64,000 bases of DNA. It comes from Polynucleobacter meluiroseus. GTDB lineage: Bacteria > Pseudomonadota > Gammaproteobacteria > Burkholderiales > Burkholderiaceae. Location of the stretch: positions 121,577-185,576 of the forward strand of contig CALRYF010000003.1 of the NCBI GenBank assembly GCA_943372325.1. The letters run 5' to 3'. Shown piece after piece: positions 5,490-63,794 of the stretch. Below the pieces are notes generated by a model. It made no database searches. It worked only from the letters and a program-made list of their open reading frames with translations, and had not been told where the DNA came from. A program made the position numbers and the translations under genes. How positions within the stretch are numbered: position 1 is the first letter of the stretch; each line of letters begins with the position of its first letter.

Positions 5490-5584
5490 GGAGACGTGGC
5501 CGAGCTGGTCGAAGGCACTCCCCTGCTAAGGGAGCATCGGGGCTAAAACTCTGATCGGAGGTTCGAATCCTCTCGTCTCCGCCA
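5490..5584 (+). tRNA. tRNA-Ser (GCU anticodon), CCA encoded
   Basis: The sequence GGAGACGTGGCCGAGCTGGTCGAAGGC...CTCCC-CTGCTAA-GGGAG...GGTTCGAATCC...CGTCTCCGCCA folds as a cloverleaf. It has a long variable arm, and the anticodon loop reads GCT. Confidence 0.9.
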
Positions 5585-5660: not shown

Positions 5661-5696
5661 CCACTCCTCGGAGTGGTTTTTTATTGCCCAATCTAG
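5661..5696 (+). repeat. cassette repeat copy 1: hairpin CCACTC-CTCG-GAGTGG + T6 + ATTGCCCAATCTAG
   Basis: It is near-identical to 8644-8679, and to 5952-5977 as far as TTATTGC. It is terminator-like, yet no gene lies immediately upstream. Confidence 0.7.
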
Positions 5697-5776
5697 GGCA
5701 ATACCTATTCCAAACCTTCAACATACTTATGCTAGGATTTGATTGTGAATACCCCACTACCTATAGGAGATTAAAC

Positions 5777-5905
5777 ATGCCAGTACAACAGATTGAATTA
5801 GAAGAGGTAACAATGATGGAGGCGAGTGATAATGCTTTAGAGGTAAGTGGAGGTGGGGCTGCAGCAGCAACTTACTCCCTTCCTACCCTTGCCTGGCCCT
5901 GCTAA
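5777..5905 (+). CDS. candidate RiPP/bacteriocin-type precursor peptide A (42 aa): MPVQQIELEEVTMMEASDNALEVSGGGAAAATYSLPTLAWPC
   Basis: An AGGAGA Shine-Dalgarno sits 7 nt upstream of the ATG at 5777. The leader is 18/26 identical to the peptide at 8488, and a hairpin-T6 terminator follows. The ORF track lists it only as the tail of a 73-aa TTG-start ORF. Confidence 0.6.
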   Translation: MPVQQIELEEVTMMEASDNALEVSGGGAAAATYSLPTLAWPC

Positions 5906-5951
5906 CCTAAATTGCGTATTCTTTTGGGTGATTTTTATGCTGCACCACCAA

Positions 5952-5977
5952 CCACTCTTCGGAGTGGTTTTTTATTG
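5952..5977 (+). terminator. cassette repeat copy 2 / terminator of peptide A (CCACTC-TTCG-GAGTGG + T6)
   Basis: A perfect 6-bp stem carries a UUCG tetraloop and is followed by a T-run. Homology to copies 1 and 3 stops after TTATTGC, where the IS-like remnant begins. Confidence 0.75.
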
Positions 5978-6280
5978 CTAAGGTTTTCTGTGTATTTGTT
6001 CAAACTCTAGCGCTTTTTGGAATAAAGCCAATTCTTTTTCCTTATCTTCTTTCTGCTTAATCAAGTCTTTTCCTCTAATAACCTGGCTTTCCTTTAAAAG
6101 TCTTTGAAGGGTAGGCTTAACGCTACTCTTGTTGGACTTCATTTCCCAAAAGTCACTTTTAAATCTATTGAAATTTTTTTTACTCGCCCATCTATTTAAC
6201 AAAGCAGGAGATAGGCCTTAAGAAGCTGAGATCTGCTTAACCCACTGTATCCCGACCTCGCCTTTACAATCTGTTTCCAT
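5978..6280 (-). pseudogene. decayed IS3-family orfA (HTH_Tnp_1-like transposase N-terminal protein)
   Basis: The minus-strand translation is METDCKGEVGIQWVKQISAS*GLSPALLNRW...TLQRLLKESQVIRGKDLIKQKEDKEKELALFQKALEF. It combines a GIS-x-x-L-x-RW type helix-turn-helix with a coiled-coil tail and is broken by an in-frame stop. No orfB is present. Confidence 0.45.
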
Positions 6281-6340
6281 GCGTCAGAACTGCATAGTAA
6301 TATGCAGTTACTAGTCCATCAGAAAGAAAGGCATGATCCC

Positions 6341-6814
6341 ATGTTCAGAAAACTTGCTATTTCCCTTTTACTTCTTGCTTGTTCTTTTAGTACGTCTTCA
6401 CAAAATGCTAAAGACCCAGTGAGTTGGTTGTTTTTAGTGAATGCTAAAAGTGTTGCCATTGAAGGAAATAAACTAATTCTGAGTAATGTCAAGCCGAATG
6501 TAGTAGCATTTAGTGACCGTCCATTTCGTAAGGCTAAGCACATTTCTGCAACTACTTTAAGTAAGCTTTGGCAAGATTCTAGAAGTGCTGATAGCTTTAA
6601 AAAAGATCCTCCTAATGCAGTAATAGTGGCGAGTAATGCTGATGGGACTTTGTCAAAAGATATGGTGGTGGAGTTAACAGGCGCTCAATATGCCAGTAAC
6701 AAGCTCACTTTTACCTTTAAAACCATTAGGGGTGAACTAGACGGCGTAACAAATGAACCTAGTCTATTCATAGACACTGGCGGCTTGATGCAGCTTGTAA
6801 ATTACCAGCCCTAG
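6341..6814 (+). CDS. small secreted protein of unknown function (157 aa)
   Basis: A Sec signal peptide (MFRKLAISLLLLACSFSTSSQNA) starts at the internal ATG at 6341. I recognise no catalytic motif. Confidence 0.6.
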   Translation: MFRKLAISLLLLACSFSTSSQNAKDPVSWLFLVNAKSVAIEGNKLILSNVKPNVVAFSDRPFRKAKHISATTLSKLWQDSRSADSFKKDPPNAVIVASNADGTLSKDMVVELTGAQYASNKLTFTFKTIRGELDGVTNEPSLFIDTGGLMQLVNYQP

Positions 6815-7046
6815 CATCCATCAAGATGTCCAACTTATCGTCTAAGATGTTAATTAATTTGCCATATTGCTTAGAATGTAAGTTCGACATAGTATCAAGC
6901 CACCCTACGGAGTAGTTTTTCTGCATATGAAAAACCCCAGCCTATCCCCTCCTATCGGAGGGTGTTCAGCAGTCAGGAACTATCTAATAATTTGACGTGA
7001 ACACAGATGCACTGCCATATATATAACGCGGTGAAGTACCCCGCTA

Positions 7047-8153
7047 GTGCAAATGATTAAATTTGAAGAAGAGACCATGGTAGAAATCGGTGATGAAGTT
7101 TTGCAACAGCAGACTGTCAAGCAAACCCTTTTTGATTTAGACTCTTTTTCTAAAAAATATCTCCTTGATTGGGAGAAAAAGTCCACGGTGAGATCTGGCA
7201 AGAGAAGTCGTCTAGACAAGACAATGATCTCAAAGGTAGAGTTCCCGTACATCATTAAGCAATTTCTTCAGTATCCAGAAATTAAGGCCTTGAGCCAAGA
7301 GGAGTTGCAGCCCTTTTATCTACAGTCATTATGTAATGTGCTGTACGGCGTGACTCAATTTGAAGTTAACTTTGTTGCTGATCAATGTGGAAAGTTAGCC
7401 AATAAAGATTTAGGAGTTGAGCTCAGCACTTCCATTGCGCAGGTAGCGCTTGCAATTGGTACTGATGAGATGTATCACGCTTTTGCGGCAAGAGAATTAC
7501 TAGCTGACATTGAGGAGTTGACAGGAGTTATTCCAGAAGCTGCTCAGAAATCAAGCTCACAACCACGAAAAGATGATTTAGGAAGCTCTAACAAGCAGAC
7601 TAAAGCGCCTTTTTCTCCCGCCGAATATTTTAAAAATGCAGTGCCTGAAAAATTAGAGCGGATAGCTGAAACTACTTTGCTATGTATTTTAGAAAATGCA
7701 ATCGTAGATGATTTATTTGAAATGGCTAAAGATTTTCAGACTACCAATCCTGTAGCCATATACAACCGAGAGCATTTACATGATGAAGGTCGTCATAAGG
7801 TATTTTTTCAGCGTCTATTGAAATATATATGGGGCGCTCTCTCAGAGGGGGATCGCATCTGTTTAGGGCAGGCTATTGCTGGGTATTATGAAAACTATTC
7901 TCGGCCGCCGTCTTATGATGAGCTGCTGCAAGTTACATCTATAAATCTTCAAAAACTTCCTTTATCTGAGGATGTCGTTCAGTCGATTGCACCGCGGGTA
8001 GCTAAATCAATGACTAGTCAGCCTCTGCATGAAACAGACTTTTTTAAGAATCCAATGCGGTTGATGGCTTTTGCAGGGATCTCAGACCATCTCCCAACCC
8101 GCGAATTGTTCCTGAAGATTGGTTTAATTGCTCCATCACTAGAAACTGCGTAA
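7047..8153 (+). CDS. AurF-type (ferritin-like) diiron oxygenase
   Basis: Candidate ligands are E106, E141xxH144 (DEMYH), E216, and H243-x3-E247-x2-H250 (HLHDEGRH). This spacing matches the seven-ligand AurF/CmlI pattern. The start may instead be the ATG at 7077. Confidence 0.7.
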   Translation: MQMIKFEEETMVEIGDEVLQQQTVKQTLFDLDSFSKKYLLDWEKKSTVRSGKRSRLDKTMISKVEFPYIIKQFLQYPEIKALSQEELQPFYLQSLCNVLYGVTQFEVNFVADQCGKLANKDLGVELSTSIAQVALAIGTDEMYHAFAARELLADIEELTGVIPEAAQKSSSQPRKDDLGSSNKQTKAPFSPAEYFKNAVPEKLERIAETTLLCILENAIVDDLFEMAKDFQTTNPVAIYNREHLHDEGRHKVFFQRLLKYIWGALSEGDRICLGQAIAGYYENYSRPPSYDELLQVTSINLQKLPLSEDVVQSIAPRVAKSMTSQPLHETDFFKNPMRLMAFAGISDHLPTRELFLKIGLIAPSLETA

Positions 8154-8487
8154 CGAGCAAGTTAATAACTTATCAAACTAGTATTGCCCTTGTTTATAAA
8201 AAGGCGCTTACTTTTTGCCCATCCATTCCAAGCGGTGTTAATACATCATTCTTTACTTCTTAGAGCCTGCACTTTTGATGGGGCACTATTAGATTAGTTT
8301 ATATCTCTTGTAAGGTAAAACCCTTGGGCAGATTTTGCATCTTAGGGTCACTGGACCAATGCCCACTTTATAACCATTCTACGAAGCAGTTTTTATTGTC
8401 CAATTTAGTGAATAACCTGTTTCAATAATTCAAATAGGTATGCTATCGTTTAGCTGTGGATAACCCACACCTTTAAGGGGATTAAAG

Positions 8488-8622
8488 ATGCCAGTACAAA
8501 TGATTGAATTAGAAGAAGTATCTTTGGTTGAGGCTAGTGATGATGTTTTGGAAATGAGTTTGGGTAATAGCGCGCAGTGTGTAACTGCCCCTACCTCAGG
8601 ATGCTGCTGTTGGGATACGTAA
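8488..8622 (+). CDS. candidate RiPP/bacteriocin-type precursor peptide B (44 aa): MPVQMIELEEVSLVEASDDVLEMSLGNSAQCVTAPTSGCCCWDT
   Basis: It is too short to appear in the ORF track. An AAGGGGA Shine-Dalgarno sits 7 nt upstream of the ATG. The leader and about 100 nt upstream are homologous to peptide A, and a hairpin-T6 terminator follows. Confidence 0.6.
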   Translation: MPVQMIELEEVSLVEASDDVLEMSLGNSAQCVTAPTSGCCCWDT

Positions 8623-8643
8623 TGTATCTTGCAGTATTACTAA

Positions 8644-8679
8644 CCACTCTATGGAGTGGTTTTTTATTGCCCAATCTAG
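8644..8679 (+). terminator. cassette repeat copy 3 / terminator of peptide B (CCACTC-TATG-GAGTGG + T6 + ATTGCCCAATCTAG)
   Basis: A perfect 6-bp stem is followed by a T-run. Outside the loop, the 36 nt match copy 1. Confidence 0.75.
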
Positions 8680-8787
8680 AAACGGATCTCTTCTAAACCT
8701 TCAAACAAGCGTGCCAAACAGATAAAGAGGCAACCATATTATTAGCCGAGGCTTCCATTGCTAAAAATAAAGTGTTTCTGCAAAAAT

Positions 8788-8808
8788 AAAGGGGCTAATA
8801 GCCCCTTT
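8788..8808 (-). terminator. terminator hairpin downstream of the lipoprotein gene
   Basis: AAAGGGGCT-AAT-AGCCCCTTT is a perfect 9-bp stem flanked by A/T runs, lying 3' of the stop of the gene ending at 8836. Confidence 0.7.
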
Positions 8809-8835
8809 ATTGATTCTGAACCTAACAATACTGGC

Positions 8836-9384
8836 TTAGTTAAAACCGTTCACCGCTTGCATGTATCCTTGGATGTACTGCGGTGGCACAAACAGTTCCG
8901 TCTTGATTCCAGACTTAGAAGAAACAGTCATGATGAAACCCTTCTTCATTCTGTCTTTAAGAAAAGCTTCAGTCAATTGCACTGAAAGCACTTCTCTAAA
9001 GATGCAGCCTCTATCGCCACATGCACCAGCTTCTCTACCAACTACTTTAAATGTAGTGGCAGGCGCACCTTCTTGCGAGGCTGACTCGTAGTAACGCCAT
9101 TGTGAAAAATAAGTCAGCTGCGCAACCAGTTCATAAGTCTTTGCACCTTGTTTAGGCTGCTCAGTCCTGAGACTAAACATTTGATAAGTATTGTTTTCAT
9201 CCATCGAATTAATCGGAGGACCTTGATAGGTTTTTCCACCTGTTGCTGAATTCGGCGTAATGATGGTTGAGTGATAGACATCATTAATTTCCCAGCCACT
9301 AATTTTTCGGTCATTCATATTGCAGGCAGCTAGACTTGCGCTGATTGCCAGCAATAAAATAATGCGAGAGATGGTGCGTTGCAT
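8836..9384 (-). CDS. lipoprotein of unknown function
   Basis: It has a signal peptide with a lipobox (LAISASLAAC). No other motif was recognised. Confidence 0.6.
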   Translation of the reverse strand: MQRTISRIILLLAISASLAACNMNDRKISGWEINDVYHSTIITPNSATGGKTYQGPPINSMDENNTYQMFSLRTEQPKQGAKTYELVAQLTYFSQWRYYESASQEGAPATTFKVVGREAGACGDRGCIFREVLSVQLTEAFLKDRMKKGFIMTVSSKSGIKTELFVPPQYIQGYMQAVNGFN

Positions 9385-63585: not shown

Positions 63586-63624
63586 CTAGCGTTTTTAGAT
63601 GGACGAAACCGGGTGTCGGTCTGA

Positions 63625-63715
63625 TGTAACTCCCCACGCCAGCATTACCTGGATCGGGTTCTAGGGTCTTTCTCAGCGCCTTCAATTAAACCTCTATGAA
63701 GGGCACCCCTGTTTC
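63625..63715 (-). promoter_or_regulatory. TPP (THI-box) riboswitch upstream of thiC
   Basis: The minus strand reads CAGGGGTGCCC...GGCGCTGAGAAAGACCCTAGAACCCGATCCAGGTAATGCTGGCGTGGGGAG. A downstream hairpin GTCCATCT/AGATGGAC (63577-63604) covers the Shine-Dalgarno sequence and the start codon. Confidence 0.9.
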
Positions 63716-63794
63716 ATCCTTAAGGAAGATTTAACCACGAAATAGACAATTGCAGTGGAGCAACACTACAACCGATGAAAACAAGCCTTATAAG

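Follow-up and report, generated by a model that had tools for sequence, protein, structure and literature searches.

Does an AurF-type diiron oxygenase whose gene lies between two precursor-like peptide genes act on these peptides, or is it an unrelated neighbour? This question is raised by the 64-kb stretch of DNA analysed here (hereafter the window), for which a sequence-only reading had proposed possible action on a peptide while noting that no peptide-modifying AurF-type member was known. The latter remark is consistent with the literature that we searched, in which we found no such member, no AurF-like enzyme in LanM or YcaO clusters and no ferritin-like diiron enzyme described as a RiPP tailoring oxidase; the only mention was a 2026 preprint in which PF11583 co-occurs with RRE-fused asparagine-synthetase-like enzymes. 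RiPP tailoring enzymes are among the main sources of new chemistry and of engineering tools for peptides, and the present system, with two peptides of 42-44 aa and one enzyme of 368 aa, is small and directly testable.

Results

The Oxygenase Gene and Its Metal Ligands

The oxygenase gene (7047..8153; this and all features below are on the + strand) encodes a 368 aa protein of the AurF superfamily of ferritin-like diiron oxygenases. The ATG start that the sequence-only reading had placed at 7047 was wrong, codon 1 being GTG; ATGs in frame with the ORF are found at 7053 and 7077. The seven ligands that it had proposed all held, with exact positions: E106 (7362-7364), E141 (7467-7469), H144 (7476-7478), E216 (7692-7694), H243 (7773-7775), E247 (7785-7787), and H250 (7794-7796), as did their spacings of 35, 3, 72, 27, 4, and 3. 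These seven residues, together with D140 and D246, were invariant both in an alignment of 39 diverse homologues, with identity down to 19%, and in the close-family alignment (23 sequences). The 15-residue low-complexity insertion also held as a claim and corresponds to a genuine variable loop between the ligand helices (residues 169-187; 7551..7607), for which the structure model gave pLDDT values below 50. The length of this loop varies among homologues, the most distant members of the 23-sequence alignment (P0059-P0066) being shorter there by about 17-21 residues. The gene is an intact, genuine AurF-type diiron oxygenase gene, with ligand conservation beyond chance.

Comparison with the 98%-identical locus L027 gave a dN/dS of 0.12 for the enzyme (14 synonymous and 6 non-synonymous changes), showing that the gene is under purifying selection, i.e., maintained. 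The precursor B peptide is identical in L027, the two nucleotide differences being both silent.

Family Placement and Predicted Fold

The AurF-type identity suggested by the earlier reading was supported by ligand conservation, by a transitive profile match and by the predicted fold. The enzyme alone did not meet the gathering threshold of the PF11583 HMM (21.8 bits, below the cut-off of 29.6; E = 1.2e-4), a precomputed PF11583 match being present in many homologues. Single-sequence search of the PDB and search of NCBIfam with the enzyme returned no match, and the profile of the close family reached only E~1.5 against AurF, a broader alignment being required for a significant match. The profile of the 39-sequence alignment matched AurF (3chh) with E = 2.7e-22 over residues 30-295 and CmlI with E = 1e-10, ligand aligned to ligand. 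The AurF ligands cited in the earlier reading (E101, E136, H139, E196, H223, E227, and H230) are those onto which the family ligands align, all seven of them. In the AF2 model (pLDDT 84.7), the top nine PDB matches found by Foldseek were CmlI (5hyh and 5hyg) and AurF (3chu, 3chh, 2jcd, and 3chi), with TM values of 0.5-0.6, followed by NrdF and then by the aldehyde-deformylating oxygenase (ADO), without any ferritin among the closest folds. The fold predicted by the model is that of a ferritin-like diiron protein of the CmlI/AurF kind.

AurF itself is not the closest relative, and this part of the earlier assignment had to be refined: the nearest characterised branch is that of the HamC/PvfB-type N-oxygenases. 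A HamC-like protein of B. cenocepacia aligned with the enzyme over its full length (residues 42-352; 25% identity, E = 7e-21) and shares with it a C-terminal DHxPTR motif, and the HamC-like clade was the sister clade of the enzyme family in a NJ tree. That this protein is HamC was inferred from the adjoining NRPS A-T region and from PMC11659414, according to which the substrate of HamC is L-valine tethered on HamD. In the sister clade, an NRPS A-T region follows the HamC-like enzyme. We considered whether homologues of 1350-1580 aa could be enzyme-LanM fusions and rejected this possibility, as they are actually AurF-like::A-T-C NRPS fusions confined to the sister clade. With both a HamC-like enzyme next to A-T and AurF-like::A-T-C proteins, the sister clade thus provides a precedent for macromolecule-tethered substrates.

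The Precursor Genes and the Islet

The peptide and oxygenase genes are held in a low-GC islet (~5700-9300; GC 0.38-0.42 vs 0.45-0.50 in the flanks), at the left edge of which lies a tRNA-Ser(GCT) (5490..5584), detected by ARAGORN and Rfam; except for this tRNA, the Rfam search of the islet recovered no known RNA. The presence of two precursor-like genes flanking the enzyme was confirmed, and both are of lanthipeptide type. Precursor A (5778..5905) has 42 aa, MPVQQIELEEVTMMEASDNALEVSGGG-AAAATYSLPTLAWPC, with a leader followed by a Ser/Thr/Cys core, and precursor B (8488..8622) has 44 aa, MPVQMIELEEVSLVEASDDVLEMSLG-NSAQCVTAPTSGCCCWDT. Both exhibit the leader MPVQ.IELEEV..(S/T)D..LE common to LanM-adjacent precursors, with cores containing Ser or Thr together with Cys. 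Precursors that adjoin LanM, in P. arcticus as well as on metagenome contigs, have leaders homologous to that of precursor A. NCBIfam search with the precursors gave a single match at chance level.

The islet is punctuated by a terminator-like boundary element (repeat family D1), a hairpin and T-run CCACTC..GGAGTGGTTTTTTATTGC that occurs three times in 64 kb vs 0 expected by chance. Copy 1 (5661..5687) lies upstream of precursor A, whereas copies 2 (5950..5978) and 3 (8642..8670) are terminators located after precursors A and B, respectively. Two degenerate elements were recovered in addition, one upstream of the enzyme gene (6898..6922; DNA alignment A2) and one upstream of precursor B (8373..8400; DNA repeat and cassette alignment).

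A predicted lipoprotein of 170 aa (6302..6814; likely start M14 at 6341, lipobox LLLAC) is encoded between precursor A and the enzyme and matched no Pfam family. Two homologues are present in the Rhodospirillales locus L014, 2.3-3.4 kb from the enzyme, and the gene is absent from L027; its membership of the system is uncertain. We also considered the lipoprotein genes of the window and of locus L028 as homologous, possible immunity genes, an idea that was rejected because the two are not homologous.

No LanM and no YcaO was found in the 64-kb window, nor any homologue of the exporter, Band7, DUF697, or SbmA-like proteins of the clusters. As a class II lanthipeptide cluster, the window would thus fulfil the criterion of precursors and fail those of LanM and of an exporter/leader peptidase. 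Neither the surroundings of the window gene nor the LanM- and YcaO-linked loci contain an NRPS or carrier gene, and ORF translations revealed no small-molecule or arylamine pathway genes near the window gene. The flanking ORFs were SDR-like, acyl-CoA-ligase-like, and Bug/TctC-like, as read from translations without profile search. The window locus is likely a reduced, cassette-like islet beside tRNA-Ser, with the order precursor, lipoprotein, leader::enzyme, precursor.

A Leader Copy Fused to the Enzyme

The earlier reading missed that the first ~24 residues of the enzyme are a copy of the leader. This leader-like extension (7047..7121; residues 1-25, MQMIKFEEETMVEIGDEVLQQQTVK) coincides with a DNA repeat, D3, that matches the leader-coding parts of precursors A and B with 64-73% identity, and the cassette DNA alignment agrees with a precursor leader copy fused in frame. 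The 5' end of the enzyme gene derives from a precursor cassette. A deletion would have joined a near-complete leader to the N-terminus of the enzyme, whose gene occupies a precursor cassette. Only the window protein, P0001 and P0002 carry the extension, the other aligned homologues beginning at MQT or equivalent. The fused architecture of P0002 (90% identity) retained an ATG start, and in the window the leader start and Shine-Dalgarno are degraded (GGTGA...GTG vs GGAGA...ATG). The extension was modelled with pLDDT values of 35-41. Any role of the fused leader is inferred, and the fusion may be a mere by-product of the deletion. The P0002 contig also has a heavy-metal-associated (HMA) gene upstream of the enzyme.

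Genomic Neighbourhoods of the Homologues

The sequence-only reading had suggested surveying the closest homologues for neighbouring small leader-bearing ORFs. We examined 23 species-representative genome loci with 10-kb context, and the result supports the link with peptides, the closest homologues lying beside such ORFs. A RiPP maturase (LanM, or YcaO with a SagB-like dehydrogenase) and/or precursors with related leaders were found at ≤10 kb from the homologue in 17 of the 23 loci: LanM was adjacent in four, YcaO of the SagD type with a leader-binding domain accompanied a SagB-like dehydrogenase in ten, one showed a weak YcaO-like and SagB-like match, and two had only a leader-bearing precursor beside the enzyme. 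Leader-bearing precursors were present in 12/23 loci, with up to ~11 copies per locus. The same pattern of association was observed in further metagenome loci, and LanM adjoins the homologues in L001-L007, L029, L050, L073, and L075. A TIGR01194 peptide exporter, Band7, and DUF697 proteins often accompany the enzyme in both cluster types. This adjacency spans LanM and YcaO types as well as Beta- and Alphaproteobacteria, with enzyme identity down to 28%, so that the synteny of the enzyme with precursors and maturases is conserved.

Loci without LanM resembling the window were also recovered. In L028 (55% identity), the order is precursor, enzyme, precursor, lipoprotein, the nearest 9 kb being free of LanM, and the Zwartia loci L008 and L009 consist of precursor and enzyme only. 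RiPP features were absent in 5 of the 23 loci (L010, L011-13, and L026), as well as in L030; in L011-13, the enzyme gene lies between those of a H+-pyrophosphatase and a MlrC peptidase. The more distant relative L031 has two notable neighbours, an A-T-TE protein of NRPS-like type and a flavin halogenase-like protein. The enzyme is accessory, since it is absent from some LanM clusters whose precursors carry the same leader.

The precursors form arrays of up to nine members, with a near-invariant leader and hypervariable cores, and many of these arrays are far from any LanM. The cores are very Cys-rich (e.g., CCCW, CGCG, CNC, and CCYSGC), and no residue is common to all enzyme-linked cores except Cys, which LanM and YcaO need anyway. 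We also looked for a core residue separating enzyme-linked from enzyme-less cores with the same leader, and none was evident.

Discussion

Proposed Function

We favour, with moderate confidence, an accessory tailoring role in which the enzyme would oxidise Cys-rich core peptides with O2; its activity on peptides is inferred, without biochemical evidence, and the chemistry is unknown. In this view, a cytoplasmic, O2-activating enzyme from a clade travelling with RiPP gene clusters would oxidise the short Cys-rich cores of peptides A and B and of similar precursors with a leader, either ahead of or following the formation of thioethers or azolines by LanM or YcaO, with LanM presumably supplied in trans by another part of the genome. 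The most plausible chemistry would be heteroatom (N or S) oxygenation or hydroxylation, although this type is itself inferred. The conserved synteny is an observation, whereas the peptide as substrate is deduced from gene neighbourhood; the action on a peptide envisaged by the earlier reading is thus supported by neighbourhood only and has not been demonstrated.

Several observations speak against tailoring. The association amounts to guilt by neighbourhood, and LanM, YcaO, exporter, Band7, and DUF697 are all missing from the 64-kb window, as are RiPP features from 5/23 loci and from L030. For every characterised relative, the substrate is an amine of a small or carrier-bound molecule, and there are few free amines in a ribosomal core. 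The distant relative L031 is located beside an NRPS-like enzyme, and the enzyme alone is below the Pfam AurF threshold. Finally, the one residue common to enzyme-linked cores, Cys, is needed by LanM and YcaO regardless. If tailoring is nevertheless confirmed, the enzyme would represent a new family for lanthipeptide and azole-peptide tailoring, with N-/S-oxygenated or otherwise oxidised peptides as possible products, and a ribosomal counterpart linked to the NRPS-associated HamC/PvfB oxygenases.

Alternative Explanations

The enzyme could be a passenger, i.e., a HamC/PvfB- or AurF-like oxygenase whose substrate is an amine, either of a small molecule or bound to a carrier, and which only shares mobile islets with peptide genes. 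The NRPS partners of the closest characterised branch, the loci without RiPP neighbours (L010-13 and L030) and the A-T-TE and halogenase-like neighbours of L031 would fit such a scenario. We consider it unlikely, given that the adjacency recurs with two unrelated maturase types and in two proteobacterial classes down to 28% identity, that the ORFs around the window gene, as read from translations without profile search, include no NRPS, carrier protein or small-molecule pathway gene, and that the window gene sits inside a precursor cassette. The window locus could alternatively be a decaying remnant, having lost LanM and transporter, with the enzyme and both peptides disused and the leader fusion a deletion scar. 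The lack of LanM, YcaO, or ABC genes over 64 kb, the degraded leader ATG and Shine-Dalgarno and the two degenerate boundary elements are in favour of decay. Against it, the intact ORF has lost no ligand and shows a dN/dS of 0.12 vs L027, the precursor B protein is conserved, the fused architecture persists in P0002 at 90% identity with its ATG start, an independent LanM-less layout exists in L028, L008, and L009, and precursors of this leader family are commonly far from LanM. Prochlorosin precursors likewise lie far from LanM. We thus regard decay as improbable too.

A non-catalytic role on the peptide seems the least credible of these alternatives. The enzyme would then be a ferritin-like iron/redox protein involved, for instance, in protecting the producer, in metal handling, or in regulation, and linked to thiol-rich, possibly metal-binding peptides. 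The very Cys-rich cores and the HMA gene of the P0002 contig could be invoked in its favour, and some members of the ferritin-like fold are non-enzymatic. However, the full AurF-type set of four carboxylates and three histidines is invariant together with the second-shell residues D140 and D246, and the closest folds are the oxygenases CmlI/AurF, with two further diiron enzymes, NrdF and aldehyde-deformylating oxygenase, coming next.

A bolder reading would make the oxygenase the sole, class-defining maturase wherever LanM is lacking beside it and the precursors (the window, L027, the P0002 contig, L028, and Zwartia L008/L009), reworking Cys-containing cores oxidatively by MNIO-like Cys chemistry on a ferritin-like scaffold. 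In the window lineage, the fused leader would be no deletion scar but a functional cis element that activates the enzyme or brings in a partner. This would define a new RiPP class, but we consider it unlikely.

Comparison With Known Systems

Our preferred reading, accessory tailoring of core peptides, can be compared with several known systems. The arylamine N-oxygenases AurF and CmlI (PF11583; 3chh, 2jcd, and 5hyh) share with the enzyme the ferritin-like diiron fold, the seven ligands one for one and an N-terminal W-x-[KR]-[KR]-[AS]-x-V motif, but identity is only ~14%, the window gene is without an aromatic-amine pathway and the family context is that of ribosomal peptide clusters. HamC/PvfB (fragin/valdiazen and pvf pathways), the nearest characterised branch, act on a protein-presented substrate, valine on an NRPS carrier (PMC11659414); their own NRPS A-T module is adjacent or fused, whereas the clade of the window has LanM, YcaO, and precursor neighbours and no carrier protein.

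Lanthipeptide and azole-peptide tailoring includes sulfoxidation by GarO, Asp hydroxylation by CinX, decarboxylation by LanD and N-terminal oxime formation by AzmF. These enzymes resemble ours in their presumed optional oxidative tailoring role and in being encoded beside LanM or YcaO and precursors, but they have other folds and cofactors (flavin, Fe/2-oxoglutarate, luciferase-like). The MNIO/DUF692 enzymes (MbnB, TglH, ChrH, and BufB) use multinuclear non-haem iron and O2 to rework precursor Cys (PMC9060507); they differ by an unrelated TIM-barrel fold and usually need a leader-binding partner protein.

In-frame leader-enzyme fusions are rare in nature, and the present one is relevant to the activation or recruitment of modifying enzymes by leaders. 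Leader-LctM fusion enzymes were reportedly engineered by Oman et al. (2012). In both cases, leader and modifying enzyme are joined covalently, but the window fusion is natural and located on a putative tailoring oxygenase, its function being inferred and the fusion possibly a deletion by-product.

The prochlorosin system combines one LanM with many scattered hypervariable precursors. We observed a similar organisation here, with near-invariant leaders, hypervariable cores and arrays remote from LanM, but the hosts are betaproteobacterial and the diiron oxygenase, Band7, and DUF697 are extra partners. The leader is short (~24 aa) and not Nif11-like, although its motif SD(D/E)xLE is similar to the C-terminal portion of leaders of the Nif11/NHLP type.

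Ligand set and family of the enzyme

The enzyme ORF spans 7047-8153 on the forward strand and encodes 368 aa. A sequence-only reading had described it as an AurF-type diiron oxygenase starting at an ATG at 7047, with ligands E106, E141, H144, E216, H243, E247 and H250 at spacings of 35, 3, 72, 27, 4 and 3. Every position and spacing held, but not the start, the codon at 7047 being GTG, with in-frame ATGs downstream at 7053 and 7077. The seven ligands did not vary among 23 aligned family members and, together with D140 and D246, stayed fixed across 39 aligned sequences with identity down to 19%; the pattern thus goes beyond chance. The 15-residue low-complexity insertion proposed in the same reading proved to be a variable loop: residues 169-187 showed pLDDT below 50 in the AlphaFold model, and the region was about 17-21 residues shorter in P0059-P0066, the most distant homologues of the 23-member alignment. 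Two cysteines invariant in the close family, C114 (7386-7388) and C213 (7683-7685), lie near the ligand helices, the latter three residues ahead of E216.

By itself, the window protein is a weak AurF match: it scored 21.8 bits against the PF11583 HMM, under the Pfam cut-off of 29.6, and neither an NCBIfam search nor a PDB search with the single sequence returned a match. A profile of 39 diverse homologues gave a far clearer result: it matched both AurF (3chh, 2jcd; residues 30-295, E=2.7e-22) and CmlI (E=1e-10), and in the profile alignments the family ligands fell on AurF E101, E136, H139, E196, H223, E227 and H230, as had been claimed. The nine top PDB matches of the AlphaFold model (pLDDT 84.7, pTM 0.83) were CmlI and AurF (TM 0.5-0.6), followed by the diiron enzymes NrdF and aldehyde-deformylating oxygenase.

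An exhaustive HMMER search gave 692 representative clusters of homologues at E<=1e-3, of which 89 also passed E<=1e-30; the homologues include AurF-like::A-T-C NRPS fusions. Such a natural junction to A-T-C was seen in the distant relatives P0139, P0144, P0149, P0155 and P0191, with A-T in P0173 and with a carrier domain only in P0193. In Burkholderia cenocepacia, an NRPS A-T region comes after the gene of a homologue (25% identity, E=7e-21, full-length alignment), in the arrangement of hamC-hamD; HamC oxidises L-valine tethered to HamD (PMC11659414). In a rough NJ tree, the clade of the window protein was sister to the clade of HamC and the NRPS fusions, with AurF as a distant outgroup. By its profile, fold and tree results, the window protein is thus an AurF-superfamily diiron oxygenase whose closest characterised branch is HamC/PvfB.

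Genomic context of the homologues

The enzyme had been noticed between two precursor-like genes, and we found leader-bearing small ORFs together with RiPP maturases around its homologues at many loci. In Polynucleobacter arcticus, whose enzyme is 80% identical to the window protein, four same-leader precursors are followed by the enzyme, a LanM (TIGR03897) and an SbmA/BacA-like protein, with genes for a TIGR01194 cyclic-peptide exporter, Band7, DUF697 and ParA-like proteins upstream. Context was scored within 10 kb of the enzyme at 23 species-representative genome loci. LanM was adjacent at four of them, and a fused YcaO cyclodehydratase (SagD plus leader-binding domain) with a SagB-type dehydrogenase was present at ten, in Alphaproteobacteria and one Polynucleobacter MAG (enzyme identity 28-34%). 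One locus had a weak YcaO-like and SagB-like match, two a leader-bearing precursor alone (Zwartia type), one two tandem enzyme copies with a SagB-like protein, and five no RiPP feature. Precursors occurred at 12/23 loci, in up to about 11 copies, with leaders of the types MPVQMIELEEV..SD.ALE, MNIELDEVVVQ.ISDDALEQAAGG and, at the YcaO loci, EF.DELSDEALDR. Locus L028 (55% identity) repeats the window layout, there in the order precursor, enzyme, precursor and lipoprotein, without a LanM within 9 kb. In LanM and YcaO clusters alike, the exporter, Band7 and DUF697 genes form a trio found alongside the enzyme; a more distant relative beside an NRPS-like enzyme has them too.

Several further genes were observed at these loci. 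The trio (TIGR01194 ABC exporter, Band7/SPFH) lies, for example, at L001 2044-5271, L014 11042-13650 and L031 1299-4744. The tandem enzyme pair of Tistlia consotensis (L017, 10001-12418) also neighbours a 1084-aa ORF without Pfam match. A gene for an SbmA/BacA-like inner-membrane peptide transporter, which might serve in immunity or uptake, adjoins LanM or precursor arrays (L001, 12388-13356; L004; L042; L059-L061). A secreted family of ~260 aa without Pfam match occurs with the enzyme in LanM clusters (L001, 1244-2026; L004; L006) and directly beside it in the otherwise RiPP-free L030 (10042-10848).

Scanning metagenome contigs with the leader pattern yielded 42 contigs, many bearing arrays of up to nine precursors with near-invariant leaders and hypervariable cores, a diversification like that of prochlorosin. 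Tandem arrays in L042, L056, L058, L068 and others of L036-L077 comprise up to 9 genes of 36-54 aa, with the leader MPVQMIELEEV.M.E.SDEALEA and hypervariable Cys/Ser/Thr cores; their hosts are probably Polynucleobacter-like bacteria. For many arrays, the surrounding 6-11 kb contained no LanM and no copy of the enzyme. Where a LanM cluster did carry this leader, the enzyme was missing in some cases (L040/L069, L041) and present in others (L050, L073, L075, L038). The enzyme is therefore accessory rather than obligatory, an optional add-on to a prochlorosin-like system and dispensable for the leader family.

Proposed function

Four points are established: the enzyme's fold, its ligand set, its repeated occurrence beside maturases of two unrelated types, and the purifying selection that acts on it. 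The reading best supported by the data, which we favour with moderate confidence, is that the enzyme serves as an accessory, O2-dependent tailoring oxygenase of Cys-rich precursor cores. Both the peptide substrate and the chemistry are inferred. AurF, CmlI and HamC suggest, by analogy, a two-electron oxygenation of a heteroatom as a plausible reaction. N-oxygenation would depend on a free amine, supplied by a Lys side chain or by a newly formed N-terminus; Cys, the sole universal core residue, would suit an S-oxygenation, whether of the thiol or of a thioether. Hydroxylation cannot be excluded.

In the literature searched, lanthipeptide and YcaO clusters are not described as containing any ferritin-like or AurF-type enzyme; one related report (a 2026 preprint) notes co-occurrence of PF11583 proteins with RRE-fused asparagine-synthetase-like enzymes. 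Known RiPP iron oxidases belong to the MNIO family, whose fold is unrelated. What is new is an inferred biosynthetic role for a known superfamily, together with an unusual natural leader fusion, although the weight of the finding is limited by the lack of biochemical evidence and the reduced state of the window locus.

The window locus and its leader fusion

The enzyme gene lies in a low-GC islet (window 5700-9300; GC 0.38-0.42, flanks 0.45-0.50) that adjoins the 3' side of tRNA-Ser(GCT), features in keeping with an acquired or recombination-prone cassette region. It is flanked by the lanthipeptide-type peptides A (5778-5905, MPVQQIELEEVTMMEASDNALEVSGGGAAAATYSLPTLAWPC) and B (8488-8622, MPVQMIELEEVSLVEASDDVLEMSLGNSAQCVTAPTSGCCCWDT). 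Each cassette is bounded by an element made of a hairpin and a T-run (CCACTC..GGAGTGGTTTTTTATTGC), present in three exact and two degenerate copies and nowhere else in the 64 kb. Homologues of LanM, YcaO, the exporter, Band7 and DUF697 were absent from the whole 64-kb window.

The enzyme gene itself sits within one such cassette: the stretch from its upstream region through its first ~64 nt aligns, at 64-73% identity, with the boundary element, ribosome-binding region and leader-coding portion of the precursors, so that the enzyme N-terminus (MQMIKFEEETMVEIGDEVLQQQTVK) is a nearly full leader. Among the aligned homologues, only the window protein, P0001 (98%) and P0002 (90%, MPVQIIELEEETMIEVGDEVLQQQSVKQT) carry this extension. 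The closest homologues lacking it (about 344 aa) begin at MQT, window residue 26; the ancestral start Met is Lys in the fused forms, whose translation must therefore start within the leader-like part. This segment was undocked in the AlphaFold model (pLDDT 35-41). The simplest origin would be a deletion that brought the enzyme gene under the control of a precursor's promoter; the fused leader might conceivably also act in cis, its function being untested.

The window copy could instead be a dead remnant. Against this, comparison with the 97.8%-identical contig L027 gives a dN/dS of 0.12 for the enzyme (14 synonymous, 6 non-synonymous changes) and an identical precursor B protein. All ligands are intact, and at 90% identity the fusion is retained in other surroundings, downstream of an HMA gene. 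The substitutions are few; the enzyme is nevertheless under purifying selection, and a dead remnant appears unlikely.

Between precursor A and the enzyme, 6302-6814 (+) encodes a predicted 170-aa lipoprotein of no Pfam family. Two homologues of this lipoprotein lie in the Rhodospirillales locus L014, at distances of 2.3-3.4 kb from the enzyme; the 98%-identical L027 lacks it. On the reverse strand at 5978-6202, between precursor A and the gene for the lipoprotein, lies a 74-aa, Lys-rich ORF that starts with TTG; it matched no family and is possibly not a gene. A TPP riboswitch (63614-63720, reverse strand; 60.9 bits, Rfam) is unrelated to the oxygenase finding.
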